64,000 nt of DNA, from positions 6,000 to 69,999 of the forward strand of contig LBSX01000002.1 of assembly GCA_000990355.1 (NCBI GenBank). The letters are read 5' to 3'. A program made the position numbers and the translations under genes. Origin of the DNA: Candidatus Magasanikbacteria bacterium GW2011_GWC2_37_14 (GTDB lineage Bacteria; Patescibacteriota; Patescibacteriia; Magasanikbacterales; UBA922). Shown piece after piece: positions 3,992 through 37,399 of the stretch. The notes beneath the pieces were generated by a model that ran no database searches, was not told the origin of the DNA, and saw only the letters and a list, made by a program, of their open reading frames with translations. Position 1 is the first letter of the stretch, and every line of letters starts with the position of its first letter.

Positions 3992-6583
3992 TTATATAGC
4001 AAATAAAAACCCATAACTCAAAGAAGTATAGGCCATATCTTGCCAAACAGTAAATTCATTCATATCCGGCATGCGGGCCCAAGGAGCATATTGTCGAAGG
4101 GCAGGAATATTTTTTGGGGTGGGATAAAAATTATTATACACCAAACAACCCCAAGCATCGGTAGGTTCACAATCGCCGTCATAATCTCGTGCATGGGGAC
4201 CATAAATAGGTAATCCAGGGACTGGTTTTTCTTGTTGGTCATACATAGAATTCAAATGTAGTGGAAATTCGGGATTTCTAATTCCTAATCCAGTTATCCA
4301 AGAAAGACCCAAAGGATTTTCTCCTAATTGATAATCAGCATTTAAAGAAATTGCGTCGATATATTTTTGATCTTTGGTAAAATAATATGCCATTGCAGTG
4401 CCAACAATACTTCTCATAGAGTTTGATCCCGAGCCCCAAGCAATTGCGTAATTAAAATTAGTAGAATTTTTATATTTATTTTCCATAATTTGTTCTACTT
4501 CGTCATTGCCAATTTCAATAATTCTATTTTTTACTTGTTCTTGAAAATCTCTGTCAACGTTGGTGCCATTGGCATTGCTATAACCCCAAAAAGAATAAAT
4601 ATTTGCAAACCAAGTAGGACCACGATAGGTTGGGTACAATTGTTTAAATACATTTTGATATTTTGTTTCATTGGTTAAAGCAAATAATTCTCCGGCGGCG
4701 TACATTTTTTCTCTTTCTAGTTCATTCAGTTTGTCTTCGTTACTTCTTTCTACAGGCGCTGTCGTGCCAAGGCTAGTTTGTTTTTCTGCCCAATCCCAAG
4801 CTTTCAAGGCTTTATTTTTTAAATCAGTGGCTTTGTTTTTTCCGGCGGGATAATTTTCCAAAATTCTCGCTAAATGTGCAGCTGCTCCGGCAAATTTATA
4901 AGAAGTCCATCTGTTTGGAGCATATGTCCAGTAGGGAAGTGTGTCACCCTCACATGTAGAAGAACCTGGGTGAGCATAACTCTCAACGCCAGCTCTTACT
5001 CCGCCGTCTGATTCTTGTAAAGTTTCCCATAATTTTATTCCCCATAAAGCTTCATCCAAAACATCTGGAATTTGGTTTCCACTTTCCGGAATATTTAATT
5101 GATTGTCTGTAAATTTATTAGGAAACATTTCTTGTAAGGTTGTTAAATCTTCGACAATTAGTAAATGCATTGGTCTTAAATCAAAATCACCAGCATCAAA
5201 CCAACCACCACTAATATTTATCGGGTTATTTTTGGAAGTATTTTTAGAAAATTTTTCACCAAAATCTTCCAATATATTTGTTTCAAATACTTGGTTCAGG
5301 CACATTTTATGAATCCAGTTGGTATATTTTGATTCTAGGGCTGTGCCAGCCCGTTGGTGGTACAAACCGCGAATTGCTGTATAAAAGGCTGTAAAAGCAG
5401 AATCTAGCCCTACGCTAAAGACAAGAGATCGACCAATTCCTTCTACCTCAAGATAATAATTACCTTCGTTTAAATCACTTAAATCTAATTCATATAAAAT
5501 TTCTCCACTTAGATTGTCCGATCCTAAGTTTGTTGATTTTCCCGAACTGACCAATTGTTTGGAACTGGCATTATACACTTGATAATTTAATTGTGTCGGC
5601 AATATTAAAGCACCGCCAGAACCTAACCAATAACCAACATAAGCATAGCGTTCTTTTGCTTTTAAAGAAAAACCATGTTGATTAATTTTAATAGCTTTGG
5701 CAATTTGCAAATCTTTGCCAGGCATTAAATTCCAAGAAGAAAATTGTTCATTGGAAAAATAACCAATTGTTCCGTTATAAACATATTTTTTACCTGTTGG
5801 GTTAATAAGTTCTACTGTATAATTTTGATCATTTTTTAATTCTTTAGGTAAAGTTAAATACAAAGTATGTCTTAAAACAACGTCGGCTTGGTTTTGGCCG
5901 TTATAATCTCTGTCTTCAGCATCTAATACTGCCGAAAATCGATCAATTTTTGTAGGATGAACAATATTTTTGTAATTTATATCACTAGTAGAAATAATAT
6001 TCCAATTGTTTGCATTCATTATAAAATTTAAATCAATTTCACCATCAAAAATTACTTCCGCTATTTTATTAGTAATTAGTCCAATTGAATTATTTTTTAT
6101 TACGACTTCAGAAGTAGTAAATTCACTGTCTGGATATATTTCCGAGTTGTTTATGGTTAATATTCTGTCCCAGCGATAGCCCAAATTATTAAAAGCAGTT
6201 TCATTAGCAATGTGTTTTTTTAATAAAATTCCTTTTTCACTGTATTCTAAGCGATAAACTTTATTACTATTAGCATATTTTATAATTGTAAATTCTGGGT
6301 GATGGTCAGTGTAATTTATTTCACCGGCAGTTTCGTATTTATTTAATAATTCGACATCAATATTTTCAATCCAATTCCAAGGGTATTTTAAAGAGTTAAA
6401 AATATTTTCAGATTTTATCCAATATTTTTTATTGTTCAATAATATATACACCTTTGGGTCGTTGGGAATTTTTACCAAAGCGCCATGCAGGGTGTTATTA
6501 ATAGAAAATGCTTTTGGCACAAACAATACAAAGGCAAAAACTAAGTTTAAAACAATTAAACTAAATATTTTTCTTTTATTCAT
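3992..6583 (-). CDS. large secreted glycoside hydrolase, GH9-like
   Basis: N-terminal signal peptide. GGWFDAGDFDLRPMH resembles the GH9 GGWYDAGDH motif, and C-terminal LGENPLGLSWITGLG.RNPEFP resembles the GH9 NP...SYVVGYG...PHHR region. Confidence 0.5.
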   Translation of the reverse strand: MNKRKIFSLIVLNLVFAFVLFVPKAFSINNTLHGALVKIPNDPKVYILLNNKKYWIKSENIFNSLKYPWNWIENIDVELLNKYETAGEINYTDHHPEFTIIKYANSNKVYRLEYSEKGILLKKHIANETAFNNLGYRWDRILTINNSEIYPDSEFTTSEVVIKNNSIGLITNKIAEVIFDGEIDLNFIMNANNWNIISTSDINYKNIVHPTKIDRFSAVLDAEDRDYNGQNQADVVLRHTLYLTLPKELKNDQNYTVELINPTGKKYVYNGTIGYFSNEQFSSWNLMPGKDLQIAKAIKINQHGFSLKAKERYAYVGYWLGSGGALILPTQLNYQVYNASSKQLVSSGKSTNLGSDNLSGEILYELDLSDLNEGNYYLEVEGIGRSLVFSVGLDSAFTAFYTAIRGLYHQRAGTALESKYTNWIHKMCLNQVFETNILEDFGEKFSKNTSKNNPINISGGWFDAGDFDLRPMHLLIVEDLTTLQEMFPNKFTDNQLNIPESGNQIPDVLDEALWGIKLWETLQESDGGVRAGVESYAHPGSSTCEGDTLPYWTYAPNRWTSYKFAGAAAHLARILENYPAGKNKATDLKNKALKAWDWAEKQTSLGTTAPVERSNEDKLNELEREKMYAAGELFALTNETKYQNVFKQLYPTYRGPTWFANIYSFWGYSNANGTNVDRDFQEQVKNRIIEIGNDEVEQIMENKYKNSTNFNYAIAWGSGSNSMRSIVGTAMAYYFTKDQKYIDAISLNADYQLGENPLGLSWITGLGIRNPEFPLHLNSMYDQQEKPVPGLPIYGPHARDYDGDCEPTDAWGCLVYNNFYPTPKNIPALRQYAPWARMPDMNEFTVWQDMAYTSLSYGFLFAI

Positions 6584-6632
6584 ATCTTTTATTTTACTCT
6601 AATAAGTGAGTAAAAACAATTTATTTATAAGA

Positions 6633-6666
6633 TATAAAAAAATAATGGCCCAATAAAGCCATTATT
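6633..6666 (-). terminator. rho-independent terminator (minus strand)
   Basis: aataatggc-ccaataaa-gccattatt stem. On the minus strand it is followed by a T6 run and lies directly downstream of the small ORF at 6693-6806. Confidence 0.6.
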
Positions 6667-6692
6667 TCATTTATTTTACAATTTTTGTAAAA

Positions 6693-6806
6693 TTATGCTT
6701 GAGGTTCAACTGGAGTTTCTTCTGGGGTAGGTTCTACTGGAGTTGCTGTTTCCTCGACTGGAGTAGTGGCTGTAGTTTCGTCTGTAGTAGGTTCGTCTTG
6801 CATCAT
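6693..6806 (-). CDS. candidate small ORF, 37 aa, Thr/Pro/Glu-rich (MMQDEPTTDETTATTPVEETATPVEPTPEETPVEPQA)
   Basis: Not in the ORF track because it is under 60 aa. It is bracketed by a consensus promoter and a terminator on the same strand. It could equally be a non-coding RNA. Confidence 0.3.
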   Translation of the reverse strand: MMQDEPTTDETTATTPVEETATPVEPTPEETPVEPQA

Positions 6807-6856
6807 ATGTGTGATACTTATGTATAAAGGCCAACTAGTGTTAGTCAGTGGAATCA

Positions 6857-6885
6857 ATTATATCACGTTTTGATTATCTTGTCAA
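6857..6885 (-). promoter_or_regulatory. consensus sigma70 promoter on the minus strand
   Basis: Read on the minus strand: TTGACA, 17-nt spacer, TGaTATAAT (extended -10). Plus-strand coordinates are tgtcaa 6880-6885 and attata 6857-6862. Confidence 0.6.
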
Positions 6886-6945
6886 TGATAAATTTTACCT
6901 TACACTACTTGGCTCGGGGTCACGAACGACGTTCGAACCAGCTTG

Positions 6946-7404
6946 TTAGAATTTTAAAAGACTGGCAATACACAAAACTACCCCAGCACCAAAAAGACAA
7001 CCAGCCATTTTACCAACCGCGGATTTAAGCATTGTCCTTTCTTCAGACACAAATTGAAGTCTTAATTTTTCGGCAGAATAGCCCTCAAAGATCCCCGCTA
7101 TTCCGTCTGTTATGGCATTTCCGACAACACCGCCAAGGATAGCCCCTGTTACCCCACCAAAATGACCGCCAAAGATTGCCATTATCGCTAGAATACCATT
7201 ATCTATCAATCCGAAGTATATATCCGGCAAAACGGATTTTATATTTATTTTAAAAGGTAAAAGAGAGAGAAGACAAAGTATGGACAATAAAATCAACACA
7301 AGACCTATCCAGTGACCGTCGTTAACAAGATATATGCTAACCGCACCGATTATAATACAAAGTGCAAGTATGTTAACGATAGCTAAAAAGAACTTCTTAT
7401 TCAT
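6946..7404 (-). CDS. small membrane protein with a glycine-zipper segment
   Basis: TM helices plus a GGVTGAILGGVVGNAITDGIAGIFEG glycine-zipper-like segment. Confidence 0.45.
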   Translation of the reverse strand: MNKKFFLAIVNILALCIIIGAVSIYLVNDGHWIGLVLILLSILCLLSLLPFKINIKSVLPDIYFGLIDNGILAIMAIFGGHFGGVTGAILGGVVGNAITDGIAGIFEGYSAEKLRLQFVSEERTMLKSAVGKMAGCLFGAGVVLCIASLLKF

Positions 7405-7406
7405 AT

Positions 7407-8585
7407 TTATTTATTAATGTTTAATCTTTTTTTGTACTTGTTTGGCTTATTAGCAACAATCTCCTTGTATATCGTCATCAATTTTGTTGTCATGTTTTTT
7501 GAACTAAATTGTTTTGAGCTTGCAAGCGCTCCTGCGGACAGTTTTTTCCGCAGAACATCATCACTTAAAATAAGCTGAATTTTTTCAACCATTTCTTTTT
7601 CAGAATTAACCAAATACCCATTAACGCCATCCTTAATGATTTCCGGAGCTACTCCGACAGGGAACGTTACGGGAATAATTCCTTGTGACATGCCTTCAAC
7701 CATACTCAAACAAAACCCTTCATAACGGGAAGTAACCAATAATATACTACCACAGAGGGCACTCAATTTTTCTTTAATTTCTGGTTTATACAGGTTTGTA
7801 TAAACAGTGTGAAGATTTATAGACGATCTTAACCAAGAACTAATGTTTTTATTAGCCGTCATTAGAATGCTAAGTTTGGGCACATCTCTAAACGCTCGAT
7901 AAGCATAAATAAGACGATCTAGCCCTTTTAATTTGAGGGTAAACACATTTTGGCCGATACGTCCCAAATAAACAAGAAAAGGGGCTGTTGTGGTCGTTGT
8001 TGGACTGTTTTCAAACCAAAAATCTTCTATCGCATTATGGACTACATGAATTTTTGTTTCATCAATTCCGCTGTTTATCAAATCGTTCTTTACTATCTCC
8101 GAGGTTGCCACAATAGCCGTGACTCGTTTAGCGACTAAATTTTCGATATCCGCTATATCTCTTAGTGGTCTTCTGGTTTTTATATTAAGTTCATTAATAA
8201 TTTTGGCTTGTTTTAATTCGTTCCAAATTTTTCTTAATTTTGGTTCAGTTTGGTTTGTGTGAGGTGTTGCGTGGATAAAACCACTCGTTGTTGAACCAAA
8301 ATGAGAAACGATAGGGGTTGAAAAAGATAAGAATGCAATCGTTGTGTATGTAGTTCCTTGGATAATATCACAGCTCAAAACTTTATTTCTATGTTCTAAC
8401 AAACTAAAAAAGAATAATATATTGTTGAAACCTTTCATGTGGTGTGGAGCGTCTACCAATTTTACTTTAGGATAAAAATGTATCATTTCGACGCCCTCTC
8501 CTTCTAATTTGCAAGAAATCAGGCTGTTTATACAACCTGCCCCAGTTTTTAATTTTTTATCTTGGTGAATAAAGGCGATTTTCAT
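7407..8585 (-). CDS. glycosyltransferase family 4
   Basis: E-x7-E signature (EGFCLSMVEGMSQGIIPV). Confidence 0.75.
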   Translation of the reverse strand: MKIAFIHQDKKLKTGAGCINSLISCKLEGEGVEMIHFYPKVKLVDAPHHMKGFNNILFFFSLLEHRNKVLSCDIIQGTTYTTIAFLSFSTPIVSHFGSTTSGFIHATPHTNQTEPKLRKIWNELKQAKIINELNIKTRRPLRDIADIENLVAKRVTAIVATSEIVKNDLINSGIDETKIHVVHNAIEDFWFENSPTTTTTAPFLVYLGRIGQNVFTLKLKGLDRLIYAYRAFRDVPKLSILMTANKNISSWLRSSINLHTVYTNLYKPEIKEKLSALCGSILLVTSRYEGFCLSMVEGMSQGIIPVTFPVGVAPEIIKDGVNGYLVNSEKEMVEKIQLILSDDVLRKKLSAGALASSKQFSSKNMTTKLMTIYKEIVANKPNKYKKRLNINK

Positions 8586-8690
8586 ATGGTAAGTCTATCA
8601 TAAAATATGATATACAACTAGGTACATTATGCCATGCAGTTTATTTTCCAGTTCAAACGTCTTGCCTCCACCTAAGGCAACTTGCATAAA

Positions 8691-9737
8691 TCAATTAGCC
8701 TTGATTTCTCCCACAATCGCTTCCAAAATATCATGAAAAGTAATAATCCCCATAATTACATCTTTATTTTTACTATTTTTATCTGTAACCAGAGCCATAT
8801 TTAGTGATGAACGTTTAAGACGTTCAATAGCCACTAATGCAGGAGTGTCAACATCAATTTTTATTGCGGGTTGGGATAAATTTCTAAGATTAATTTTTTC
8901 TTCCACATTGCCTTTAAAATAATGAGACAAAATATCTTTTACTTCTAAAATACCAATAAAATTGTCTAGAGTGTTTTCACACAGTAAAAAGATAGAACGG
9001 TCACTGGTGGATATTTTACGTTTAATCTCATCATAGGAATCATTGGTGTCTAACCATATTATCGCGTTTCGTAATGTCATAAAATCTTTAATCGGGCGAT
9101 TACCTAAATGAAAAATACTTTCCACCATTTTTTGTTCGGCTCTTTCAAATACCCCACTTTCTGCACCCTCAGCTATTAGAAGTTTAATTTCATCTTCTGT
9201 AACAATCTGTTCAGGAGCTGGCTTAATATGAAGTAACTTAAGCAATATCGTAGTTGATGAACTTAGCAGATTCACTAAAGGGGTGGCAATTTTCATTATT
9301 ATTTTTATTGGTCCAGCAACTCTTAATGATAATTTTTCAGGATTTGATAGAGCAATTTGTTTTGGCACAAGCTCGCCAATTATTAATGATAAATATGTAA
9401 TAACTATAACCACTACTGCCACGCTGATTAGCTCGCTATATCCAGTAATAGGAGGAAATACTGACAAAAATTTTTCCAAGTGTTCAGCCACAGTCGCCCC
9501 GCCAAAAGCACCAGCGAATATTCCGATAACTGTAATGCCTATTTGGATTGTAGAAAGCATTTCAGGAGATTTACGTGTCAAAAATAATGCATTTTGTGCT
9601 TTTTTGCTTCCTTGTTTAGACAAGTGTCTAAGACGGCTTTTTTTAACGCTTAACAAGGCTATTTCTGACATGGAGAAATAACCATTTAAAATAATCAAAG
9701 CAATTATTAAGAGAATTTCAATTAAGACATTTGGCAT
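8691..9737 (-). CDS. CNNM/CorC/TlyC-family protein (DUF21 TM domain, CBS pair, CorC_HlyC)
   Basis: N-terminal DUF21-like TM region, CBS-like middle region and a C-terminal transporter-associated domain. Start placed at the internal MPNVLIE. Confidence 0.75.
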   Translation of the reverse strand: MPNVLIEILLIIALIILNGYFSMSEIALLSVKKSRLRHLSKQGSKKAQNALFLTRKSPEMLSTIQIGITVIGIFAGAFGGATVAEHLEKFLSVFPPITGYSELISVAVVVIVITYLSLIIGELVPKQIALSNPEKLSLRVAGPIKIIMKIATPLVNLLSSSTTILLKLLHIKPAPEQIVTEDEIKLLIAEGAESGVFERAEQKMVESIFHLGNRPIKDFMTLRNAIIWLDTNDSYDEIKRKISTSDRSIFLLCENTLDNFIGILEVKDILSHYFKGNVEEKINLRNLSQPAIKIDVDTPALVAIERLKRSSLNMALVTDKNSKNKDVIMGIITFHDILEAIVGEIKAN

Positions 9738-9830
9738 ATTAATAAGTTTACCATTTACAACAAAATATAACAATTGATTTTATATTGTATCGAACTTAAT
9801 GAATTAATTTGAATCTCAGCTGTAGTCAAC

Positions 9831-9859
9831 AAAAATAAGGCTTTAATTAGGCCTTATTT
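9831..9859 (-). terminator. terminator downstream of tRNA-Asn
   Basis: aataaggc-tttaatta-gccttatt hairpin, followed on the minus strand by a T-run. Confidence 0.5.
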
Positions 9860-9865
9860 TATAAG

Positions 9866-9937
9866 CTCGGGAGGTGGGGATCGAACCCACGACCATCACG
9901 TTAACAGCGTGCCGCTCTACCGCTGAGCTACTCCCGA
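9866..9937 (-). tRNA. tRNA-Asn (anticodon GTT)
   Basis: Manual cloverleaf: acceptor TCGGGAG/CTCCCGA, D-arm GCTC/GAGC, anticodon loop CTGTTAA, T-arm GTGGG-TTCGATC-CCCAC, discriminator G. CCA is not encoded. Confidence 0.85.
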
Positions 9938-9944
9938 ATATAAA

Positions 9945-10097
9945 ATGTCTGTGTATTCACAGAAACTATGAACACATTAAATACCTTATACTTAAAGTGC
10001 GAAGCGGTACCACTGCCTGCCCGCCAAGCTTGCTGGTGATTGCGCCGGATGGTTGTGGTGTGAACCGAGAGGCGGGGGCTACTCCCGAATATAAATT
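9945..10097. repeat. GC-rich structured island bounded by an 18-19 bp direct repeat that duplicates the tRNA-Asn 5' end
   Basis: gctactcccgaatataaa occurs at 9927-9944 and again at 10078-10095. The roughly 130 bp between them is GC-rich with internal inverted repeats (gcccgcc / ggcgggggc). Confidence 0.4.
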
Positions 10098-10220
10098 GTT
10101 GGTATACTGTAAAATTGTGGTGAAATTATAACAAATAAAAAAACCAGTGTCAATAAGGATTATTAACAAGACGGCCAAAATTTTTGATTTATTTAAATTT
10201 AATGCTAAAATATATCTACT

Positions 10221-10778
10221 ATGTCAGACAATAAATATTTAAACATCGTAAACGAAGCTGGCCAAATTATTGGTGAAGATTCTCGGGAAAATATTCATAA
10301 AAATGGTTTGCTACATCGCGAAGTTCATGTTTGGTTTTATACCCCTCAAGGTGAGATTATTTTGCAACACCGTGGTAAAAATGCCGAGACTTTTCCTGAT
10401 TTGTTATATGTTACTGTGGGTGGTCATGTAGAAATAGGAGAGGATTTCGAGCAAGCCGCTCTAAAAGAAGTACAAGAAGAAACAGGTGTAAAATTAAAAA
10501 TTAGTGATTTAGTTTTGGTATATAAAGCTCACGCGCCAATTGATACTGACACTGTTACTCATAAAATAAATAATACCATAAGAGCAGTTTACGTTTATTG
10601 TTATCGAGGAGCAATCAAAGATTTACAAACAGAAAAAGGTGTAGGGCAAGGTTTTGAAGTATGGCCTTTGACAAGAATATTAAATATTTCAAATGAAGAC
10701 CGAATAAAATTAATTTTTAGTATTTTAAAAGAACCAGCTTTGGGAATTTTAAAAAAGATTCAAACAATGATAAAATAG
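10221..10778 (+). CDS. NUDIX hydrolase
   Basis: Nudix box GGHVEIGEDFEQAALKEVQEETGV. Confidence 0.8.
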   Translation: MSDNKYLNIVNEAGQIIGEDSRENIHKNGLLHREVHVWFYTPQGEIILQHRGKNAETFPDLLYVTVGGHVEIGEDFEQAALKEVQEETGVKLKISDLVLVYKAHAPIDTDTVTHKINNTIRAVYVYCYRGAIKDLQTEKGVGQGFEVWPLTRILNISNEDRIKLIFSILKEPALGILKKIQTMIK

Positions 10779-10806
10779 ATTTAATTTAATTCATAAGTAT
10801 AAAACT

Positions 10807-11205
10807 ATGAAAGGCTACAAAAACAATATCGAAAAATTAACTCTAGAAAATGAAAATTTTCGCCAAGTGCTTTATACTGGCAAAAATTGTCAATTAGTCT
10901 TAATGACTTTAAAACCAAATGAGGAAATTGGTATGGAAGTGCATAGTGAAAACGACCAGTTTTTTCGTTTTGAAAGTGGAACTGGTAAAGTAGTAATTGA
11001 TGGCAATGAACAAGTAGTGGGCGATGGTGACGCGGTAATTGTACCAATGGGTGCAGAACACAATATTATAAATACCTCAACGACAGAAGCCTTAAAACTT
11101 TACACTATTTATGCTCCACCACACCATGCCGATGGTACAATACACCCTACCAAAGAAATAGCTTTGGCCGATGATGAAGAATTTGACGGTGTTACAACTG
11201 AGTAG
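10807..11205 (+). CDS. cupin-domain protein
   Basis: Cupin-2-like motifs (G.EVHSEN ... VIVPMGAEHNIIN). Confidence 0.65.
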   Translation: MKGYKNNIEKLTLENENFRQVLYTGKNCQLVLMTLKPNEEIGMEVHSENDQFFRFESGTGKVVIDGNEQVVGDGDAVIVPMGAEHNIINTSTTEALKLYTIYAPPHHADGTIHPTKEIALADDEEFDGVTTE

Positions 11206-11207
11206 TT

Positions 11208-11402
11208 ATGAATGGACAAAATCGTGCTGACATAAAAATTGGCTTGGCAGTGGAAATAGTTTTGAAAGCTGATCAAAGAACTGGTAAACTGACCAAGGGG
11301 ATTGTTGCAGAAATTTTAACGAGTTCAAGTTTTCACCCACATGGCATAAAAGTGAGATTGGCAGACGGTCAAGTGGGTAGGGTGGCCAAGATAATTGATT
11401 AA
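11208..11402 (+). CDS. YwbE-family protein (DUF2196)
   Basis: 64 aa; KDQRTGKLT...HPHGIKVRL..GQVGRV is characteristic of the YwbE family. Confidence 0.7.
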   Translation: MNGQNRADIKIGLAVEIVLKADQRTGKLTKGIVAEILTSSSFHPHGIKVRLADGQVGRVAKIID

Positions 11403-11410
11403 TAATATTT

Positions 11411-12049
11411 ATGATTTATTTAATTGGCGCACCGCCCAGATGTGGCAAGACCACTTTGGCCAAAAAAATGTCTAAGCAAATGAGAATTCCTTGGCTGTCT
11501 TCTGATACTCTGGATTCCATAACCCAAGTATTAACAACAAAAGGAAAATTTGCTAAAAAATTTCCTTATTCTTTTTTGCGAAAAAAAGGCAGTGCCAAAA
11601 ACAATGATTCGTTTTATAATGTCTACTCACCAGAAAAAATAGTTAGTGTTTTAAAAAAAGAAGCCGAGGCAGTTCATTTAGCGATTGATACTGTAATTGC
11701 TTGTGAAATAGCCGACGGCAATGATTATATTATTGAAGGTTATCATTTATTGCCTGGTTTTGTTAATAAAATGATTAAAAAGTATGGTAAACAAAATATT
11801 CGGGCAGTTTTCTTAACTAAGTTTGATGCGAATAAATTTGCCGTAGATGTTCACAAAAGTACCACGCCCAATGATTGGTTACTGGTTTTAACTAAAAAGC
11901 CAGAAACTTTTATTAAAGTTGGCAAAATGGTTTCTGCTTTTAGTAAATATTTTGAGCAGGAGGCAAAAAAGTTTGGTTTACAGACTTTTAATACTGATAT
12001 AAATTTTATTAGACAGATTTTTGAAGCTATAAAATGTTTAAAAGCTTAA
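11411..12049 (+). CDS. P-loop NTPase / small kinase-like protein
   Basis: N-terminal Walker A GAPPRCGKTT, and a size of about 210 aa, typical of small nucleotide or sugar kinases and zeta-like ATPases. Confidence 0.5.
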   Translation: MIYLIGAPPRCGKTTLAKKMSKQMRIPWLSSDTLDSITQVLTTKGKFAKKFPYSFLRKKGSAKNNDSFYNVYSPEKIVSVLKKEAEAVHLAIDTVIACEIADGNDYIIEGYHLLPGFVNKMIKKYGKQNIRAVFLTKFDANKFAVDVHKSTTPNDWLLVLTKKPETFIKVGKMVSAFSKYFEQEAKKFGLQTFNTDINFIRQIFEAIKCLKA

Positions 12050-12052
12050 TGT

Positions 12053-12493
12053 ATGAGCGATATTATATATTCAACAATGAAAAATTCAGAAGAAATTGAA
12101 TTTTTACGAGACAGAAGATCATTTAATTATTCATTCAACAAAGTTACAATGGATTCGCTAGAAAAGCATTTTAGACTAAAAGACAGCTTGTATTTGTTGG
12201 CTAAAAAAGAAGAAAGATTTGTGGCTTTTTGCTCTATTGATCGAGGGTGGTGGGAAGAAAATTTCTTTTTTATTCGTGAAATTTTGGTAGATCCAGACTT
12301 CCATAAGAGAGGAATAGGTGAAAAATTAATGAGTATGTGTATAGAACATGCAAAAAACTGTGGTACCGTGGGCGTTGTGACTGAAACAGATTTTGTAAAT
12401 ATTCCCATGCAAAAACTTTGTGAAAAACTAGGTTTTACGAAATGGGAAAATCCGCAATGGAAAGAGGGGATAACTTATAAATTGATTTTTTAG
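12053..12493 (+). CDS. GNAT family N-acetyltransferase
   Basis: Acetyl-CoA-binding motif A (R/Q-x-x-G-x-G/A), here KRGIGEKLM. Confidence 0.75.
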   Translation: MSDIIYSTMKNSEEIEFLRDRRSFNYSFNKVTMDSLEKHFRLKDSLYLLAKKEERFVAFCSIDRGWWEENFFFIREILVDPDFHKRGIGEKLMSMCIEHAKNCGTVGVVTETDFVNIPMQKLCEKLGFTKWENPQWKEGITYKLIF

Positions 12494-12494
12494 T

Positions 12495-13460
12495 ATGAAA
12501 ATGAACAGCAATACAATAAAAATTATCAAAGCCGAACCAAAAGATGTGTTGGGTATTGCAGAAGTAAAAAAAGTTACCTGGCTTGCAACATATCCCAATA
12601 AAAAAGCTGGGATAACAATTGAGGATTTACAAAAAAGTAATTTTTTTGATATAGAAAAAATTAAACGGCGACAAAAAGAGATAAGAGAAAATATAAATCG
12701 TCAATTTTGGGTTGCCAAAGATGATAAAAAGACAGTTGGTTTTTGTGGGGCAATGAGAGAAAAAGAAAAATATGAAATTGGTGCTATCTATGTTTTACCA
12801 GAATATCAGGGTCAGGGGATTGGTAAGATGTTCATTGATAAGGCATTTGTCTGGCTTGGTGGTAATAGAGATATTATCGTTAAAGTGGTAAGCTATAATA
12901 AACAGGCGATTAATTTTTATAAAACAGTAGGCTTTAAGTTGGCTAAAGGAGTTAAAAAGTCTGAATGGCATAAATTGGCGTGTGGCAAATTACTTCCCGA
13001 GATTGAGATGTTAAGAAAGGGTGTAAAATGCAAACTTGCAACAATAAATGATACAAAAATACTTTTGAAACTAAACAGCCTTCTTGACCTAGAAGAAAAA
13101 AATAAAAAGGAAAAAATAAGTGAAGCAGTTAAAAAGAAATTAATTTGGGTTGCTGAGTGTGATAAAAAAATTGTCGGGTATGTTCTTGTTAGACTGTTTG
13201 ATAAAATGCACGAACAACTACCAAATTCTGTTTTTCTTTCTGATTTGTGTGTGCTAGATAACTATCGCGGGCAGGGTATTGGTAGAATGTTGGTACAGAA
13301 AACATTGGATAAAAAATATCCTAAACAATATCATTATTTTTCATTAACACACGATCCAAAAGAAAAAGATTTAACTAATTTTTATAAAACTTTTGGTTTT
13401 AAAGTGAAAGGAAAAACTAAAGCTGGGAATGTTAAGTTGGTTAAAAATATAATTGTATGA
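12495..13460 (+). CDS. tandem GNAT acetyltransferase (two GNAT domains)
   Basis: Two Q/RGQGIG motifs (QGQGIGKMFI and RGQGIGRMLV), one in each half. Confidence 0.7.
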   Translation: MKMNSNTIKIIKAEPKDVLGIAEVKKVTWLATYPNKKAGITIEDLQKSNFFDIEKIKRRQKEIRENINRQFWVAKDDKKTVGFCGAMREKEKYEIGAIYVLPEYQGQGIGKMFIDKAFVWLGGNRDIIVKVVSYNKQAINFYKTVGFKLAKGVKKSEWHKLACGKLLPEIEMLRKGVKCKLATINDTKILLKLNSLLDLEEKNKKEKISEAVKKKLIWVAECDKKIVGYVLVRLFDKMHEQLPNSVFLSDLCVLDNYRGQGIGRMLVQKTLDKKYPKQYHYFSLTHDPKEKDLTNFYKTFGFKVKGKTKAGNVKLVKNIIV

Positions 13461-13870
13461 AAAATAATTACGACTGGGAAAGTGTTGGTTTGGATTTTGG
13501 AAATTGGGATGAAGAAAAAATATGGGCGTTAAATTTGACTGTTGTAGAAATAGACATTAATGAATTGTTGTGGCATTTTGATGCTCCTTGGTGGCCAAAT
13601 GATACCGATGAACGGTGGACTGTTACTCCTTGGGATGTGTTGAATAAAACAGTAGATAGTAAAAAACAACAAGATATTACAGATCAAGTTGATCTTTCTT
13701 ATCCTATTGATATCTTTAAGAATAAAGGTAAGTGGCTTATTTTGGATGGGATTCACCGTCTGGTAAAATCATATAAACAGGGTTTAAAGAAAGTTAAGGT
13801 ACATATCATTCCACCAGAGAGGCTTCCTGAAATTTTGTCCGGTTTACCAATTGAGTTACCTAATAGTTAA
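13457..13870 (+). CDS. hypothetical protein with a ParB/sulfiredoxin-like DGxHR motif
   Basis: Trp-rich N-terminus, and C-terminal LILDGIHRL resembling the ParB/Srx DGHHR signature. Weak evidence. Confidence 0.3.
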   Translation: MKNNYDWESVGLDFGNWDEEKIWALNLTVVEIDINELLWHFDAPWWPNDTDERWTVTPWDVLNKTVDSKKQQDITDQVDLSYPIDIFKNKGKWLILDGIHRLVKSYKQGLKKVKVHIIPPERLPEILSGLPIELPNS

Positions 13871-13879
13871 TTTCTTTTT

Positions 13880-14464
13880 ATGAAAAAAATAATTCCAATA
13901 ATAAATTGCGCCACCCGACTGGCATTAGTAAATAGAACGGTTGGTTATCGTGACGGCCATTTTGAGAATGACGCCGAACATAGTTATCAACTAGCCTTGG
14001 CTTGTTGGGCGGCAAATAAACAATATAATCTTGGCCTAAATGATGAATTAATACTTAAATTTGCGTTGATACATGATTTGGTTGAGGTGTATGCCGGTGA
14101 TGTAGATGCTTTTGGCGATCCACAACAAATTGTTTTGAAAAAGGAAAATGAGAAAAAAGCCTTCGCGAAATTAAAAACAGAATTTGGTCAATTTGAGGAC
14201 ATCATAGGTATGATTGAAAAGTATGAAGAAAGAAAAGAAATTGAAGCCGAGCTGGTTTATGTATTTGATAAGCTGATCACGGATGTTAATATTTATAATA
14301 GCAAAGGAGATTATTATAAGAGTAGAAAAATTGGCGTAGACGGGTGGAAAAGTTGGTTTTTAAATAAAATAAATTACGATTCATTAGATCTGAAGCTTAA
14401 GCCACTAGTAGATGAATCAATAAAAGAAGTAGAGGAAAATTTTAAGAGTAGTTTTTATGGATAA
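13880..14464 (+). CDS. HD-domain phosphohydrolase (YfbR-like 5'-deoxynucleotidase family)
   Basis: H...HD...D pattern (EHSYQLA ... LIHDLVEVYAGDV). Confidence 0.65.
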   Translation: MKKIIPIINCATRLALVNRTVGYRDGHFENDAEHSYQLALACWAANKQYNLGLNDELILKFALIHDLVEVYAGDVDAFGDPQQIVLKKENEKKAFAKLKTEFGQFEDIIGMIEKYEERKEIEAELVYVFDKLITDVNIYNSKGDYYKSRKIGVDGWKSWFLNKINYDSLDLKLKPLVDESIKEVEENFKSSFYG

Positions 14465-14499
14465 TACTATAATAAATGAAATTTTTTAAATAATTAACT

Positions 14500-15159
14500 A
14501 TGAAACTACTTCTTACATCCGCTGGTTGGGGAGAGAGCCCGGTGATTGGTCAGAAATTTTTGAAATTGGTTGGAAAAAAGCCTTCTGAAATTAGGATATT
14601 TTTAGTGGTGACCCCAATTAAATATCTTAAACGAAATAAATATATTTTGAACCAACTGTTGCAGTTCAAAGGAATTAAGATACCAGAGAAAAATATTACT
14701 TTTTTCAAATTAGATAGAAAACTCGCACCAGATGATTTGAAAAATATAGATGTTGTTTTTGTCTTTGGGGGAAACACTTTTGAATACTTAGACAGAATTA
14801 AAAAAACTGGCTTAGATAAAATTATTAAAAGTTTTGTTAAAAAAGGTGGTGTTTATTTGGGATTAAGTGCTGGCAGTTATGTTGCTTGTCCCACAATTGA
14901 AATGGCGACTTGGAAAAATGCTGACCCTAATTTGATTGGTCTTAAAAATTTAAAAGGTTTGGATATCGTGCCTTTTTTGGTTACCGCTCACTTTGAAGAA
15001 AAATGGCGTGAGGTCATTGAGCAGAGTGCTAAGAAAACAAAATACCAAACTATTGCCTTAACAGACAAACAAGCAATTTTGGTAAAAGGGAAAAGCATAA
15101 AGATAATTGGTAGTGGCAAGAAAAATATTTTTAATGGTAAAAAATACCAAAGTAATTAA
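14500..15159 (+). CDS. S51 peptidase (peptidase E-like)
   Basis: LLLTSAG, FVFGGNTF and the GLSAGS nucleophile motif. Confidence 0.6.
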   Translation: MKLLLTSAGWGESPVIGQKFLKLVGKKPSEIRIFLVVTPIKYLKRNKYILNQLLQFKGIKIPEKNITFFKLDRKLAPDDLKNIDVVFVFGGNTFEYLDRIKKTGLDKIIKSFVKKGGVYLGLSAGSYVACPTIEMATWKNADPNLIGLKNLKGLDIVPFLVTAHFEEKWREVIEQSAKKTKYQTIALTDKQAILVKGKSIKIIGSGKKNIFNGKKYQSN

Positions 15160-15241
15160 AATGAAATTAATTTTATAAATTCCTTCTATCGTGCTATAAT
15201 TTATTAAACACAGTTTATTAATATAAATTAAACTAATATTT

Positions 15242-16564
15242 ATGTTAGAATCAATCGCTTTTAAACTATTTTTGTCAATACTAATTGGTGCCGCTATTGG
15301 TCTAGAAAGACAAAGTGGAGCTACACAAGAAGCACCTGGTGGTATTAGAACTTTTTCCATTGTCTCATTAATGGGTGCTTTAGGAGGAGTACTCCTTACT
15401 TCGGGTGCTAATGTGTTGTTTGCCATAATGAGCGCATTTGTGGCACTGTTAATTTTGGCTTATTATGTTATTTATTCATTAAAATCAAACAAACTTGGTT
15501 TTACCAACGAACTGGCAGTATTTTTTGCATATCTTTTGGGCTTTTTAGTAACTGCCTCTAGTCTATCATTACAAGTTGTGATTGCAATTTTTGTAGTTGT
15601 GCTTTTAATTTTATCTTTTAAACACAAAGTTAAGCACTTCATGGCTAGAGTTTCTCGGAGTGAAACAGAGTCTTTTATTAGTTATGCTATTATTGCTTTG
15701 GTAGTTATGCCATTTTTACCGAATACCGCTATTCATGTTAGTGATATTCCACTTTTACAAACTATTCTAAATGGTTATCAAATAAATTTAGGCGCTTTTG
15801 GTAGTATGGAAATATTTAATCCTCGAAATATTTGGTATATTGTAGTTTTGGTAACTGGTATTGATGTTTTTGGTTATTTATTGGGTAAATTATTTGGCAA
15901 CAAACGTAGTTTTGTTCTTACTAGTTTAATTGGTGGCTTTATTTCTTCTACTTCTACAACTATAGCGATGGCCAATAAAAGTAAAAAAGGTGGTGTGGTT
16001 AATCATTTGGTAGGGGCGACGTTAATTGCCAATATGGCCAGTATTTTTCCAATTTTTTTATTGGTTGGGCCAATAAATGGAGCCTGGTTAGCGACAATTG
16101 TTCCGACATTGGTTTTAGTTATTTTAAGTGCAGCTATTTTAGGAGCTGTTTTTCTCTTAAAAAAGACTGAAAAAAAAGATGAGGCAAATAAATTGGATAC
16201 TTCTGCAGAAAAGAAGGGTAAAGTGTTTTCATTAATGCCAGCTTTAAAATTTGCTCTTATTTTAATTGCAGTAAAATTTGTTACCAAAATTTGTTTAGTG
16301 GTTTTTGGTAACTCAGGATTTATAATTAGTTCAATGATTGCTTCGCTCGCTGGTTTAGATGCCATAGTTATAAATTTGGCAGACATGGCGGGTAAGACTA
16401 TTACTTTTCATACAGCTTTATTCACTCTTATCTTGGTAAGTGCTACCAACATGGTTGGCAAAATGGTCTATTCATTTATTCAAGGAAAAGGCTCATTTGC
16501 TCTCAAATTATCACTCTCCTTAGCTGTGGTTATTGGTGTAAGTTTTATAGGTCTATTTATTTAA
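15242..16564 (+). CDS. MgtC/SapB family membrane protein with a C-terminal DUF4010 domain
   Basis: N-terminal LIGAAIGLERQ...GIRTF MgtC signature, followed by a multi-TM C-terminal domain. Confidence 0.7.
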   Translation: MLESIAFKLFLSILIGAAIGLERQSGATQEAPGGIRTFSIVSLMGALGGVLLTSGANVLFAIMSAFVALLILAYYVIYSLKSNKLGFTNELAVFFAYLLGFLVTASSLSLQVVIAIFVVVLLILSFKHKVKHFMARVSRSETESFISYAIIALVVMPFLPNTAIHVSDIPLLQTILNGYQINLGAFGSMEIFNPRNIWYIVVLVTGIDVFGYLLGKLFGNKRSFVLTSLIGGFISSTSTTIAMANKSKKGGVVNHLVGATLIANMASIFPIFLLVGPINGAWLATIVPTLVLVILSAAILGAVFLLKKTEKKDEANKLDTSAEKKGKVFSLMPALKFALILIAVKFVTKICLVVFGNSGFIISSMIASLAGLDAIVINLADMAGKTITFHTALFTLILVSATNMVGKMVYSFIQGKGSFALKLSLSLAVVIGVSFIGLFI

Positions 16565-16595
16565 TTGACTTTGCATTTATAAGAAAAAATATTTA

Positions 16596-16625
16596 AACAT
16601 CTCAACCTAACTGAGATGTTTTTTA
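16596..16625 (+). terminator. rho-independent terminator
   Basis: aacatctca-acctaac-tgagatgtt followed by T6. Confidence 0.7.
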
Positions 16626-16654
16626 ACCCTTTTATTTTCAATTAGTGCTGGGGG

Positions 16655-16683
16655 TTGACAAACAATTAAATTTTCGCTATAAT
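16655..16683 (+). promoter_or_regulatory. consensus sigma70 promoter for typA
   Basis: TTGACA (16655-16660), 17-nt spacer, TATAAT (16678-16683), about 15 nt before the typA ATG. Confidence 0.6.
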
Positions 16684-16697
16684 TAGGCAATTCTTAT

Positions 16698-18512
16698 ATG
16701 CAGATTAGAAATATTGCCATTATTGCCCACGTAGACCACGGTAAAACCAAATTAACCGATGGTTTGTTGCGTTTTACTGGCATGGTTACGGACGAAAGTG
16801 TAAGTATGGATTCTAATGCTTTGGAGCAAGAACGTGGCATTACAATTTATTCCAAAAATACTTCTGTTTTTTATAAAGGAACAAAAATTAATATTGTGGA
16901 CACTCCTGGTCACGCTGATTTTGGCTCCGAAGTAGAACGTGTACTTCGTTCCATTGATTCAGTATTATTGGTTGTTGATGCACAAGAAGGTCCGATGCCT
17001 CAAACAAAATTTGTCTTAAAAAAATCATTAGATTTGGGTTTAAAGCCGATTGTGGTGATTAACAAAATAGATAAAGCCGCCGCTCGACCCGAATGGACTC
17101 ATGATAAGGTTTTGGAATTATTTATGGATTTGGGTGCCAATGATGCACAATTAAATTTTACTACTGTTTATGCCATTGCAAAAAATGGCATTGCCAAAAG
17201 AAATTTAGCCGATGAAAGTAATGATTTAGCACCTTTACTTGATACAATTTTAGAAGTTGTTGAACCAGCCAAGGTAGACACCACATTGCCATTTACTTTT
17301 CAACCTTTTAATTTGGCTTATGATAATTACTTGGGTCGTTTAGGTATTGGCCGTATTTATCAAGGCACTTTAAAAGCTAATGACCGAGTGTTTGATAAAA
17401 AAGTTGACGGTGAAATAATTTCTGGTAGTGTAAATAAAATTTTTACTTTTGAAGGCATGGCTCGCAAAGAGGTAAGTGAAGTGATTGCTGGCGACATTGT
17501 CATGGTTGCCGGTCTTCCCGAAATTTATATTGGTGATACTGTTTGTGCCAACAAAGATCAAGAAACTTTACCAGCGATTAGTGTAGATGAACCAACCATT
17601 TGTCTTAATTTTTTGGTAAATAATTCTCCTTTTGCCGGACGTGAAGGTAAATATGTAACCAGTCGCCAAATTAAAGAACGTTTGGAAAAAGAATTAGAGG
17701 TAAATGTAGGTTTAAAAATTGATTTTTCGGCTACTGACTACTATAAAGTTTATGGTCGTGGTGAATTGCATATTGCAATTTTATTAGAAAATATGCGCCG
17801 CGAAGGTTTTGAAGTACAAGTTTCGCAACCACAGGTAATTATTAAGGAAATTCCTTCGGCAAGCTCAGGACAAGTAATTAAATGTGAACCTTTTGAAGAA
17901 ATTACCGTAGATATTCCCGATAATTGTGTGGGTGGAGTAATTGAAAAATTATCCAAACGTAAAGCGGTAATGACAGAAATGCGTCCTGAAGGTAATCATA
18001 CTCGTTTACTCTTTATTATTCCTACTCGCGGACTCTTGGGTTATCGCAATGAATTTATTGTGGATACTCGTGGTGAAGGAATTTTATGTAGTGAAATGAT
18101 TGGATTTCAACCCTATGTTGGTGAAATAGAAAAACGCGATGTAGGTTCCATGATTTCTGGTGAAACTGGTAAAGTGTTGGCTTATTCATTGGCCAATTTA
18201 CAAGATCGCGGTGTATTGTATGTAGCACCAAATGTAGATGTTTATACTGGACAAGTAATTGGCAATACTGCCAAGGGTCAAGATATGACCGTTAACCCTA
18301 TTAAAGGTAAGCATCTCACCAATATGCGTTCTTCCAATTCAGATATGGCAGTGCAATTAACTCCGCCAATGGATTTATCACTAGAAAGAGCCATGGAAGT
18401 AATGGCTGAAGATGAATTTTTGGAAATTACTCCCAAAAGTATTCGCTTGCGTAAACAATTTTTAACCGAAAATGATCGGATTCGGCAAGAAAGAAAAGAA
18501 GCTAAAGAATAA
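16698..18512 (+). CDS. typA: translational GTPase TypA/BipA
   Basis: G1 [11 protein letters not shown]3 [12 protein letters not shown], and the EF-G-like domain order. Confidence 0.95.
17852..17875 (+). repeat. 24-bp GC-rich in-frame repeat (family C), copy in typA
   Basis: tccttcggcaagctcaggacaagt matches 20168-20191 in nifS at 23 of 24 positions. It encodes PSASSGQV. Confidence 0.6.
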
Positions 18513-18539
18513 ATCGCCAAAACTGGCGATTTTTTTTTA
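18513..18539 (+). terminator. rho-independent terminator after typA
   Basis: atcgcca-aaac-tggcgat followed by T9. Confidence 0.75.
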
Positions 18540-18578
18540 TTTATGCTAAACTGTGCTAGTTATAACTAAATTTATTTT

Positions 18579-19163
18579 ATGTCAAAAGAAATCGTTTTGG
18601 ATATTGAAACCATTGGCGATATTCGTGATTTTAATAGTTTAAAAGTTACTGTTGTTTCTATTTATGAATATGAAACCGATAAATATACTAGTTTTGTAGA
18701 ATCTGAATTAGGAAATTTGTGGCCAATTTTGGAAAAAAGCGAACGGATAATTGGTTACAATAGTGAACATTTTGATTTGCCAATATTAAATAAATATTAT
18801 GCTGGGGATCTTTTAAAATTTCCCCAATTAGATATATTAAAAGTAATCAAAGAAACTAGTGGTTCACGTTTTAAATTAAATGATATTGCTAAAGCTACCT
18901 TGCAAATCGAAAAAAGTGCCGATGGTTTACAAGCCATGAAATGGTGGGAAGAGGGGAAAGTGGATGAAATCAAAAAATATTGTGAGCAAGATGTAAAAGT
19001 TACCAAAGAGATTTATGAATATGGTCGCAAAAATAAAATGTTGTATTTCTTTACTCTCACCGGCGACCTTACACCAATTGCGGTGAATTTTGAGCCAATA
19101 CCACAATCCACAACAAAAAATGGTAGTACCGTCTCCAATATCAATTTAACCCTGCCCTTGTAG
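18579..19163 (+). CDS. DEDD-family 3'-5' exonuclease (RNase H-like fold, YprB-like)
   Basis: Exo I LDIETIG, Exo II YNSEHFDLPIL, Exo III YCEQDV. Confidence 0.55.
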   Translation: MSKEIVLDIETIGDIRDFNSLKVTVVSIYEYETDKYTSFVESELGNLWPILEKSERIIGYNSEHFDLPILNKYYAGDLLKFPQLDILKVIKETSGSRFKLNDIAKATLQIEKSADGLQAMKWWEEGKVDEIKKYCEQDVKVTKEIYEYGRKNKMLYFFTLTGDLTPIAVNFEPIPQSTTKNGSTVSNINLTLPL

Positions 19164-19193
19164 TTGACATCTCATACTTAGATAGTATATAAT
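19164..19193 (+). promoter_or_regulatory. sigma70-like promoter for the Rrf2-nifS-nifU-fdx operon
   Basis: TTGACA (19164-19169), about 18-nt spacer, TATAAT (19188-19193). The spacer contains an ATACT-n5-AGTAT inverted repeat that could be an operator. Confidence 0.45.
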
Positions 19194-19219
19194 GAATTTA
19201 CTTTTATATACTTATTTAT

Positions 19220-19630
19220 ATGTTACAATTCAACAAAGAAGTAGACTATGCTTTGCAACTGCTTTTGGCATTAAAAAGTTTACCCGAAGGCCAGCTTTTG
19301 AGTTTAAGAAATTTTTCTAAAGGTAGTAAAATTTCTTTTTTATTTTTACAGCGTATCGCCTTTAAATTAAAAAATTCAGGAATTGTTAAGTCCGTAAAGG
19401 GGGCGCAAGGGGGTTATTATTTAGCCCAAAAACCACAAAAAATTACTTTTAAGAATGTGGTTGATTCTTTGGAAGGGGAATGTGTGGTAGCCAATTGTTT
19501 GCGAGCAGGTTTTTGTTGTGAAAAACAAAAGACTTGCAAGGTGCACGATGTTTTTTTCAATATCAACACCAAAATTTTGGAATATTTAAGTGCTATAAAT
19601 CTAGGTACAATTGCTAATTATGACAAATAA
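19220..19630 (+). CDS. Rrf2-family transcriptional regulator (IscR-like, Cys-containing)
   Basis: N-terminal Rrf2 helix-turn-helix region and a Cys cluster CLRAGFCCEKQKTCKVH for an Fe-S ligand set. Confidence 0.8.
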   Translation: MLQFNKEVDYALQLLLALKSLPEGQLLSLRNFSKGSKISFLFLQRIAFKLKNSGIVKSVKGAQGGYYLAQKPQKITFKNVVDSLEGECVVANCLRAGFCCEKQKTCKVHDVFFNINTKILEYLSAINLGTIANYDK

Positions 19631-37194: not shown

Positions 37195-37399
37195 TCCACA
37201 GTTTAAGTGGTCTTGACAGTTTTCATACTAAATTAGTATACTATACTTAGTTTAAGTCACTTTTTAATTATAATTATATGTGTGGTGGATGTTCTTGCTA
37301 AATTAGCCAAAAATATCCCGACTAAGTCGGGATATTTTTTTATTGCCTTTTTTATACTTGGATGCTAGAATAGTGTACATATACAAGCTAAAAGAGAGC

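Follow-up and report, generated by a model that had tools for sequence, protein, structure and literature searches.

A stretch of 64,000 nucleotides from contig LBSX01000002.1 of Candidatus Magasanikbacteria bacterium GW2011_GWC2_37_14, a member of the candidate phyla radiation (CPR), henceforth referred to as the window, contains a tRNA-Asn gene whose 5' end is present twice. We explain this duplication by a small insertion that entered the gene just behind its first 11 bases and brought a replacement 5' end with it, and by a kinship of the inserted DNA with small cassettes, encoding proteins of the GIY-YIG type, which are laid out in a similar way at tRNA genes of other CPR bacteria. For the explanation as a whole we estimate a probability of roughly 0.55. 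Taken separately, an insertion that regenerated the 5' end of the tRNA gene is likely, and the kinship with the GIY-YIG cassettes is tentative, with slightly less than an even chance of being right.

The sole tRNA gene of the window, tRNA-Asn(GTT), was located with ARAGORN at 9865-9937 on the minus strand (5' end at 9937, CCA not encoded) and scores 67 bits against the Rfam tRNA model, where the threshold is 29; directly 3' of it, a hairpin followed by a T-run (9832-9860, minus strand; a 10-nt inverted repeat, 100% complementary) is its likely terminator. The 18-mer GCTACTCCCGAATATAAA, which on the tRNA strand comprises 7 nt of upstream flank (TTTATAT) and tRNA bases 1-11 (TCGGGAGTAGC), occurs exactly twice in the 64 kb, at 9927-9944 and at 10078-10095. 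The copies are 151 bp apart from start to start, with 133 bp (9945-10077) between them, and the repetition of the first 11 nt of the tRNA and of 7 nt upstream, which had been noticed in an initial annotation made from the letters of the window, is thus exact. No third copy exists in the window when up to 3 mismatches are allowed, and two matches were obtained in 0 of 100 shuffled sequences. With mismatches the repeat lengthens to 29 nt at 86% identity (9927-9955 versus 10078-10106, covering positions -18 to +11 of the gene), 7 of the 11 flank positions beyond the exact core being the same, for which we estimate p ~0.02 in AT-rich sequence. Copy 1 (9927-9955, minus strand) is made up of tRNA bases 1-11 (9937-9927), the exact flank of 7 nt (9938-9944) and the diverged flank of 11 nt (9945-9955); copy 2 (10078-10106, minus strand) is a stranded fragment made up of tRNA bases 1-11 (10088-10078) and flank. 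Three independent assemblies carry the identical sequence, and an assembly artefact as the source of the repeat is ruled out because the JGI and Logan contigs (6.5-7 kb) are 100% identical to the window; the protein adjoining the locus is also recorded in the NCBI metagenome-assembled genome of Candidatus Magasanikbacteria GW2011_GWC2.

The promoter bears on which of the two copies is the older. A sigma-70-type promoter (TTGACA, 17 nt, TATAAT, with a TG extension), matching the consensus at 12 of 12 positions, lies at 10153-10125 on the minus strand, and the distance from its -10 box to base 1 of copy 2 is exactly 36 nt. Loci of related bacteria, given here as L numbers, were reached through a CNNM transporter gene that adjoins tRNA-Asn; tRNA-Asn is kept near CNNM in three of them (L004, L054 and L179). 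In L179, TTGACA-17-TATAAT stands exactly 36 nt before an uninterrupted tRNA-Asn gene, and equivalent promoters are also present in L004 and L054. Upstream of copy 1, a consensus scan found no promoter comparable to that at 10153-10125. Because its distance from the promoter is that found before the intact tRNA-Asn of L179, copy 2 is most likely the original start of the gene, the displaced fragment still lying next to native flanking signals, with L179 as the single comparator. The promoter at 10153-10125 is presumably the native promoter of tRNA-Asn, now ~178 nt upstream of the tRNA.

We propose the following course of events, the direction of which we infer from the positions of promoter and copies. 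The tRNA-Asn gene would originally have begun at 10088, 36 nt downstream of the consensus promoter. A segment of 151 bp (133 bp plus the 18-bp core) would then have entered the gene behind tRNA base 11, where the conserved G-U-A-G-Y of positions 7-11 ends, and the far end of this segment would have been its own copy of ~18 nt of tRNA-upstream flank and of tRNA bases 1-11. Joined in register to resident bases 12-73, the incoming copy would have given the intact tRNA at 9865-9937, and resident bases 1-11 would have been left stranded beside the promoter at 10078-10088. Copy 1 is thus read as the replacement 5' end and flank that arrived with the insert; we propose that both were copied from a related tRNA-Asn locus, which would explain why the outer flank has diverged (7/11). 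Transcription of the tRNA would now most likely start at the old promoter and read through the insert, giving a precursor whose leader of ~178 nt holds the stranded fragment and a GC-rich hairpin region and would be cut off by RNase P. Just upstream of the tRNA 5' end, a consensus scan found a weak terminator-like hairpin (9963-9948, minus strand; UCUGUG-AAUA-CACAGA followed by CAUUUUAUAU), which has 6 pairs, 3 of them G-C, and may reduce this read-through.

The DNA between the copies had been described in the initial annotation as a GC-rich island of about 130 bp. The length is close to the 133 bp found, but the insert is not uniformly GC-rich: only ~9996-10077 (~82 bp, read on the minus strand) has a high GC content (66%), and 9945-9995 (51 bp) is AT-rich and matches the base composition of the window, which has a mean of 32.7% GC. 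A GC content of 66% in a genome of 33% fits a recent foreign origin or a constrained structure. On the tRNA strand the GC-rich part, which is unique in the window and has no match in Rfam, opens with CCCCGCCUCUCGG directly after the GUAGC of the stranded fragment. Within it, CUCUCGG (10071-10065) is able to pair with UCGGGAG of the stranded fragment (10088-10082) to give an acceptor-like helix of 7 bp. An internal inverted repeat, previously noted as gcccgcc/ggcgggggc, is present in the form of CCCGCC (10020-10025) complementary to GGCGGG (10071-10076) in a hairpin scan, and a long imperfect hairpin pairs 10005-10013 with 10055-10067. According to the sequence and the list of open reading frames (ORFs), the AT-rich part (9945-9995, minus strand), which ends in the diverged flank of copy 1, contains an AAGG-type ribosome-binding-like site followed by ATG TGT TCA TAG (9977-9966), as well as two small hairpins that are mutually exclusive.

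Structure of this kind could also have a function of its own, the GC-rich hairpins and the decoy tRNA 5' end acting as a regulatory or processed RNA, such as a stable small RNA derived from the leader, an RNA that imitates RNase P substrates, or a competitor in the folding of the acceptor stem. The region does sit downstream of a perfect promoter and on the tRNA strand, a GC content so high for an AT-rich genome is suggestive of constraint, and the UCGGGAG/CUCUCGG helix differs from the real 3' strand at two positions, both of which still pair via G-U. In addition, regulatory leaders do precede tRNA-Asn in L004 and L054. However, when positions 9700-10300 were searched on both strands with the covariance models of Rfam, at the gathering threshold and at E<=10, the tRNA alone was recovered and no other family, T-box, 5S, SRP and 6S included; the predicted fold of the island is only marginally better than that of shuffled sequences (z-scores of -1.8 for the tRNA strand and -0.4 for its complement); and searches of relatives, phages, plasmids and viral contigs gave no homologue. 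Moreover, L192, one of the cassette loci described below, has no equivalent of the acceptor-like helix, and the leader in the window has no Asn-codon ORF of the type seen in L004 and L054, whose putative leader attenuator is missing from the window and from L179 alike. We therefore regard a functional leader as improbable, and it would in any case be compatible with an origin by insertion. The same results (nothing in Rfam at E<=10, a z-score of -1.8 and no homologue) lend no support to a small structured RNA gene, which the initial annotation had offered as its alternative together with a covariance search as the means of deciding.

Candidates suggested by individual motifs were likewise discarded. 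A T-box, suggested by GUGGUACCGC, gave no match to the model and has no antiterminator partner, and 5S rRNA, to which there is a similarity by eye on both strands, did not match its model either. No other copy of the island is present in the window or in the loci of the relatives, and none was found in phage and plasmid collections; in viral contigs, a 16-mer gave 40 chance matches, none of which extended, and the 18-mer across the junction gave none.

The reading as an insertion gains weight from other tRNA genes. A scripted search for duplicated tRNA ends, which covered 11 tRNAs in the window and in CPR-related loci, found the case described here and two more, in L179 and L181. In L181, a 14-nt repeat of the tRNA-Trp gene, TATGGGCGCGTAGT (-3 to +11), has its second copy 335 nt upstream and can be extended to 22 nt with one 6-nt indel; between the copies lie a GC-rich stretch and an ORF for a GIY-YIG protein of 87 amino acids, which ends 7 nt before tRNA-Trp. 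Homologues of this protein are numerous in Patescibacteria, and the two that we looked up led to L192/L193 and to L187. At L192/L193, an exact 22-nt repeat of a tRNA-Ser gene (-9 to +13) encloses two GC hairpins and a GIY-YIG ORF of 86 amino acids, whose stop codon lies inside the regenerated tRNA-Ser; in L187 the same two hairpins and ORF are found directly after dnaX, with no tRNA. These cassettes, each with two conserved GC hairpins and an ORF of 86-87 amino acids, occupy L181:5501-5907, L192:1432-1832 and L187:1455-1764. The hairpins are conserved at all three loci, hairpin 2 being CCGCC-GAAGA-GGCGG and hairpin 1 having compensatory changes in its outer pairs (GTC/GAC, TGC/GCA and GTA/TAC). 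Searches of viral contigs with the GIY-YIG alignment gave no match, and those with the motif of hairpin 2 gave 120 chance matches in GC-rich phage DNA, none of them with a GIY-YIG gene.

The window and the cassettes have a common layout, which consists of a promoter, a stranded 5' fragment, GC hairpin sequence that begins immediately after this fragment, a spacer rich in A and T that contains a ribosome-binding-like site and an ATG, and the regenerated flank with the tRNA. It recurs at three tRNA genes (tRNA-Asn of the window, tRNA-Trp of L181 and tRNA-Ser of L192), where the breakpoints fall at tRNA bases 11, 11 and 13, respectively, two of them just after the conserved GUAGY. As in L181 and L192, the insert in the window is bracketed by a duplicated end of its host gene (18 nt exact, 29 nt at 86%), and the host gene is intact (67 bits). 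Together with a promoter spacing like that of L179, the like duplications at tRNA-Trp of L181 and tRNA-Ser of L192 support the proposal made in the initial annotation that a small element landed at the 5' end of the tRNA and regenerated it. An endonuclease ORF lies inside the inserts of L181 and L192 and is absent from that of the window, which measures 133 bp; we read the latter as a member of the cassettes that has no ORF, being either decayed or miniature.

Two further observations were made on these loci. In L001, a homologous GIY-YIG ORF is located ~100 nt downstream of tRNA-Gln, and there is no duplication. The tRNA-Ser(GGA) at L192:1747-1832 combines a 5' acceptor strand of GGAAGGG with a 3' strand of CCCCCCC, which leaves two A-C mismatches, and has a lower Rfam score of 44 bits; its replacement 5' end may be ill-matched to the resident 3' strand.

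Several points weigh against the explanation by insertion of a cassette relative. No remnant of a GIY-YIG gene was found in the insert or in the 64-kb window, either with tblastn or with a profile run against the six-frame translation, where a lone match of 3.8 bits overlaps the promoter and was dismissed as noise. A profile of the leaders of the three cassettes has no significant match to the island (nhmmer, E=33), and local comparison with L181 gave a single notable similarity, which is weak (6 of 300 shuffles) and involves the opposite strand. With no GIY-YIG gene and no significant sequence similarity, the link to the cassettes is therefore one of layout, and the recurring layout is itself defined by only three loci. 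The argument from promoter spacing draws on one relative, L179, whose leader cannot be aligned with that of the window (10 of 36 positions identical), and in neither L181 nor L192 did a promoter turn up ahead of the stranded fragment. The collections contain no closely related genome (the closest CNNM homologue outside this strain is 73% identical), so no empty site can be demonstrated.

A duplicated 5' end could also be what is left of a tandem duplication of tRNA-Asn, in which case an internal deletion would have joined bases 1-11 to the last ~14 and left copy 2 as a pseudogene. The 13 bases that come after copy 2 (CCCCGCCTCTCGG), with the T that follows them, do agree with the tRNA 3' end CCCCACCTCCCGAG in 11 of 14 nt, and neither of the two changes in the acceptor strand abolishes pairing. 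Against this, alignment of the two regions beyond the 29-nt repeat is no better than that of shuffled sequences, 241 of 500 of which reach the score, and relaxed ARAGORN searches gave noise only and no second tRNA, a result that also disposes of an intron-containing tRNA. The same breakpoint and an inserted ORF at other tRNAs of relatives would likewise go unexplained, and we hold a tandem duplication, or a pseudo-tRNA derived from it, to be very unlikely.

More weight is due to integration by a tyrosine or serine integrase, with an att site at the 5' end of tRNA-Asn, the two copies being attL and attR, and most of the element since deleted, as in a cis-mobilizable element (CIME). An att site classically shows itself as direct repeats of a tRNA end in which the core is exact and the arms have diverged, and integrative elements and CIMEs share with the window such repeats around foreign DNA and an intact tRNA. 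In L179, moreover, the last 17 nt of tRNA-Asn (AATCCGACCCTGGGAGC), which start in the T-loop, a typical site of integrase crossover, are duplicated. However, integrases overwhelmingly use the 3' part of tRNA genes, and the repeat in the window is of the 5' end. Unlike integrative elements, the window has a mere 133 bp between the repeats and no integrase or recombinase, none being found when all ORFs of 3992-19630 were compared with Pfam, neither in 10221-19630 nor among the genes to the left. L181 and L192 have the same 5' breakpoint and hold a GIY-YIG gene instead of an integrase, and the neighbouring genes are native, as set out below. An integrase scar is accordingly unlikely. The duplication in L179 (L179:2911-3037) has its copies 164 nt apart (start to start), a terminator and small GC hairpins (CCGT-GAGA-CGG and CCCC...GGGG) lie between them with no ORF, and the duplicate is followed by a second terminator; we read it as a 3'-end counterpart of the feature in the window.

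The initial annotation had placed the start of an island of small enzyme genes at the tRNA. From 10221 onwards, the window encodes NUDIX, cupin, DUF2196, P-loop, GNAT, HD, S51, MgtC/DUF4010, BipA, exonuclease and Rrf2 proteins, and the same families flank the CNNM gene in relatives that lack this insertion (NUDIX and DUF2196 in L056, cupins in L054, MgtC/DUF4010 in L181 and GNAT in L184). Because these families adjoin the same transporter gene there, we take the genes downstream of the insert to be its native neighbourhood; with no integrase or recombinase in 10221-19630 either, the proposed island is not supported. Nor are cargo genes bounded by repeats, there being no third copy of the repeat in 64 kb and the neighbours being syntenic. 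In L056 (L056:2000-4035), DUF2196, NUDIX and CNNM lie on one strand with no tRNA between them; relative to that locus, the NUDIX-cupin-DUF2196 block of the window (9865-11402) is inverted with respect to CNNM, and tRNA-Asn and the insert are at the junction.

GC-rich palindromes elsewhere in the window offer another comparison. A family headed by GTAGCCTGCC, of the form GTAG(G)CCTGCC...GGCAGG, has 3 copies in the window where 0.03 are expected, besides one GTAGGCCTGCC on the minus strand, and a second family, CCTCCCCTnnnAGGGGAGG, has 2 copies where 0 are expected; the sites of the palindrome families are 1443-1487, 37929-37947, 38421-38445, 61330-61339 and 62620-62651. The likeness that the initial annotation had seen between the insert and its family B palindromes extends to a GTAG head, a GCC-rich stem and CTGCCTGCC, which is found at 10013-10021, but not to the number of copies, since the island occurs once in the window. 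A repetitive extragenic palindrome (REP) with a GTAG head could thus have been inserted at the GUAG of tRNA positions 7-10, the duplication being secondary. The number of GTAGCCTGCC palindromes in the window is in line with this, the island opens with GTAGCCCCCGCCTCTCGG where the family has GTAGCCTGCCTGCCGG, GGCGGGCAGGCAG is found later in the island, and GTAG is also present at the foot of hairpin 1 in L181 and L187. However, the insertion of a REP or of an IS200-type element leaves no target duplication, the other GC islands of the window have no flanking direct repeats, and the duplication at tRNA-Asn would go unexplained. The island, of which there is no second copy, does not form a simple palindrome, and no REP-associated transposase was identified, in a comparison that took only part of the ORFs of the window through Pfam and included no dedicated search. 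GTAG-tagged REPs, intragenic ones included, are a described class (PMC3733652), and like them the window has a GTAG head followed by a GC-rich stem, with related palindromes in the same genome, some of them inside ORFs. The island differs from them in being single-copy and long, in having no clean palindrome and in being flanked by a duplication of 18-29 nt, and we consider a REP origin to be quite unlikely. A miniature transposon does not fit, the sequence being single-copy in the window and in the loci examined and the 18-29-nt repeat being far longer than usual target-site duplications.

Other GC-rich islands of the window are associated with protein-coding genes. Two larger ones (61265-61365 and 62556-62692) are located at the ends of ORFs of the SpoU and WecG types and have no match in Rfam. 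GC-rich palindromes also lie in frame inside genes, namely at 29123-29212 in a TatD ORF (28641-29771) and at 37929-37947 and 38421-38445 in a UvrD-like ORF (37343-40384). The TatD domain has ~46 extra residues, ~30 of which are encoded by the GC island 29123-29212. These intragenic palindromes resemble intragenic REPs or the palindromic elements of Rickettsia.

Two known systems come close to the cassettes and to the insert in the window. Phage T4 has a free-standing GIY-YIG homing endonuclease gene, segB, in its tRNA gene region, which presumably spreads when alleles without the nuclease are cleaved and then repaired. SegB resembles the CPR cassettes in that a small GIY-YIG gene lies beside tRNA genes; unlike them, it is located between tRNA genes, splits no tRNA and duplicates no end, and the nuclease activity and homing of the CPR GIY-YIG proteins are putative. 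In Allomyces, papers on double-hairpin elements have described GC-rich hairpins in AT-rich DNA that accompany the inserts of mobile endonuclease ORFs (mORFs). Fungal mitochondrial mORFs, the closest analogue that has been described, carry a foreign gene terminus, as at atp6 of Allomyces macrogynus and at atp6, atp9, cox2 and nad3 of Glomus (PMC3630166). As we propose for the window, an insert inside a gene brings a copy of the gene's terminus and thereby gives a working hybrid, and the native end is displaced as a duplicate beyond the insert (PMC3630166). The insert of an mORF normally encodes a GIY-YIG or LAGLIDADG endonuclease (PMC3630166), whereas the copy in the window has no endonuclease ORF. 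The host genes also differ, being a bacterial tRNA gene with a duplicated 5' end (bases 1-11/13 and flank) on the one hand and protein genes with a duplicated 3' end, or C-terminus, on the other. The diverged flank of the repeat fits a 5' end copied from a related tRNA-Asn locus, comparable to the foreign terminus that mORFs have been described to carry (PMC3630166).

If the explanation by insertion of a cassette relative is correct, an essential, single-copy tRNA gene of a minimal genome was invaded without being killed, a new 5' end having been supplied instead of the usual 3' end. To our knowledge, after a limited literature search, replacement of the 5' end has not been described at tRNA genes, and the search returned no paper on tRNA genes of CPR bacteria that contain GIY-YIG cassettes. 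For the uncharacterised small GIY-YIG proteins, of which Patescibacteria have many, the DNA of the tRNA D-arm would become a candidate target. A speculative generalisation, which we would bet against though not heavily, is that CPR bacteria may harbour undescribed selfish cassettes, made up of two GC hairpins and a GIY-YIG nuclease of ~86 amino acids, which enter the D-arm of tRNA genes at positions 11-13, after the universal U8-A9-G10-Y11, and survive because the 5' end that they bring as a replacement includes the RNase P context. The insert in the window would then be an ORF-less member that now serves as a tRNA-Asn leader of 178 nt, whose transcription begins at the native promoter left stranded, and tRNA-processing enzymes might still recognise its acceptor-like helix, UCGGGAG/CUCUCGG. 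In this genome the feature, which we take for the scar of an insertion or for a miniature element, is probably neutral, and its direct biological weight is modest; beyond this genome, it points to a recurrent and undescribed occupation of tRNA genes by small cassettes in CPR bacteria. It also calls for caution in annotation, in that a stranded tRNA fragment may be taken for an RNA gene when a strong promoter lies beside it.

The leaders of tRNA-Asn in L004 and L054 are of a different kind. We know of no precedent for a leader-peptide attenuator on a tRNA gene, and our literature search found no paper on leader-peptide control of tRNA genes; a search of metagenome contigs with the terminator motif of these two loci returned 120 generic terminators, none of which adjoins tRNA-Asn. 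In both loci (L004:3235-3459 and L054:821-1043), the sequence between a sigma-70-type promoter and tRNA-Asn contains a mini-ORF with many Asn codons, which encodes the peptide MKTTRLNNNNNNSPAGGV in L004 and MKNMVNNNNVNNTP in L054. The mini-ORF is followed by an intrinsic terminator, CCCGCC-loop-GGCGGGTTTTTCAAT, that is located 10-20 nt before tRNA-Asn. As modelled, the arrangement looks like a leader-peptide attenuator of the trp/his type that would control a tRNA gene: in constrained folds the full terminator is predicted to form with the ribosome at the stop codon, and a competing antiterminator, which in L054 is a helix of 15 bp, is predicted to form otherwise.

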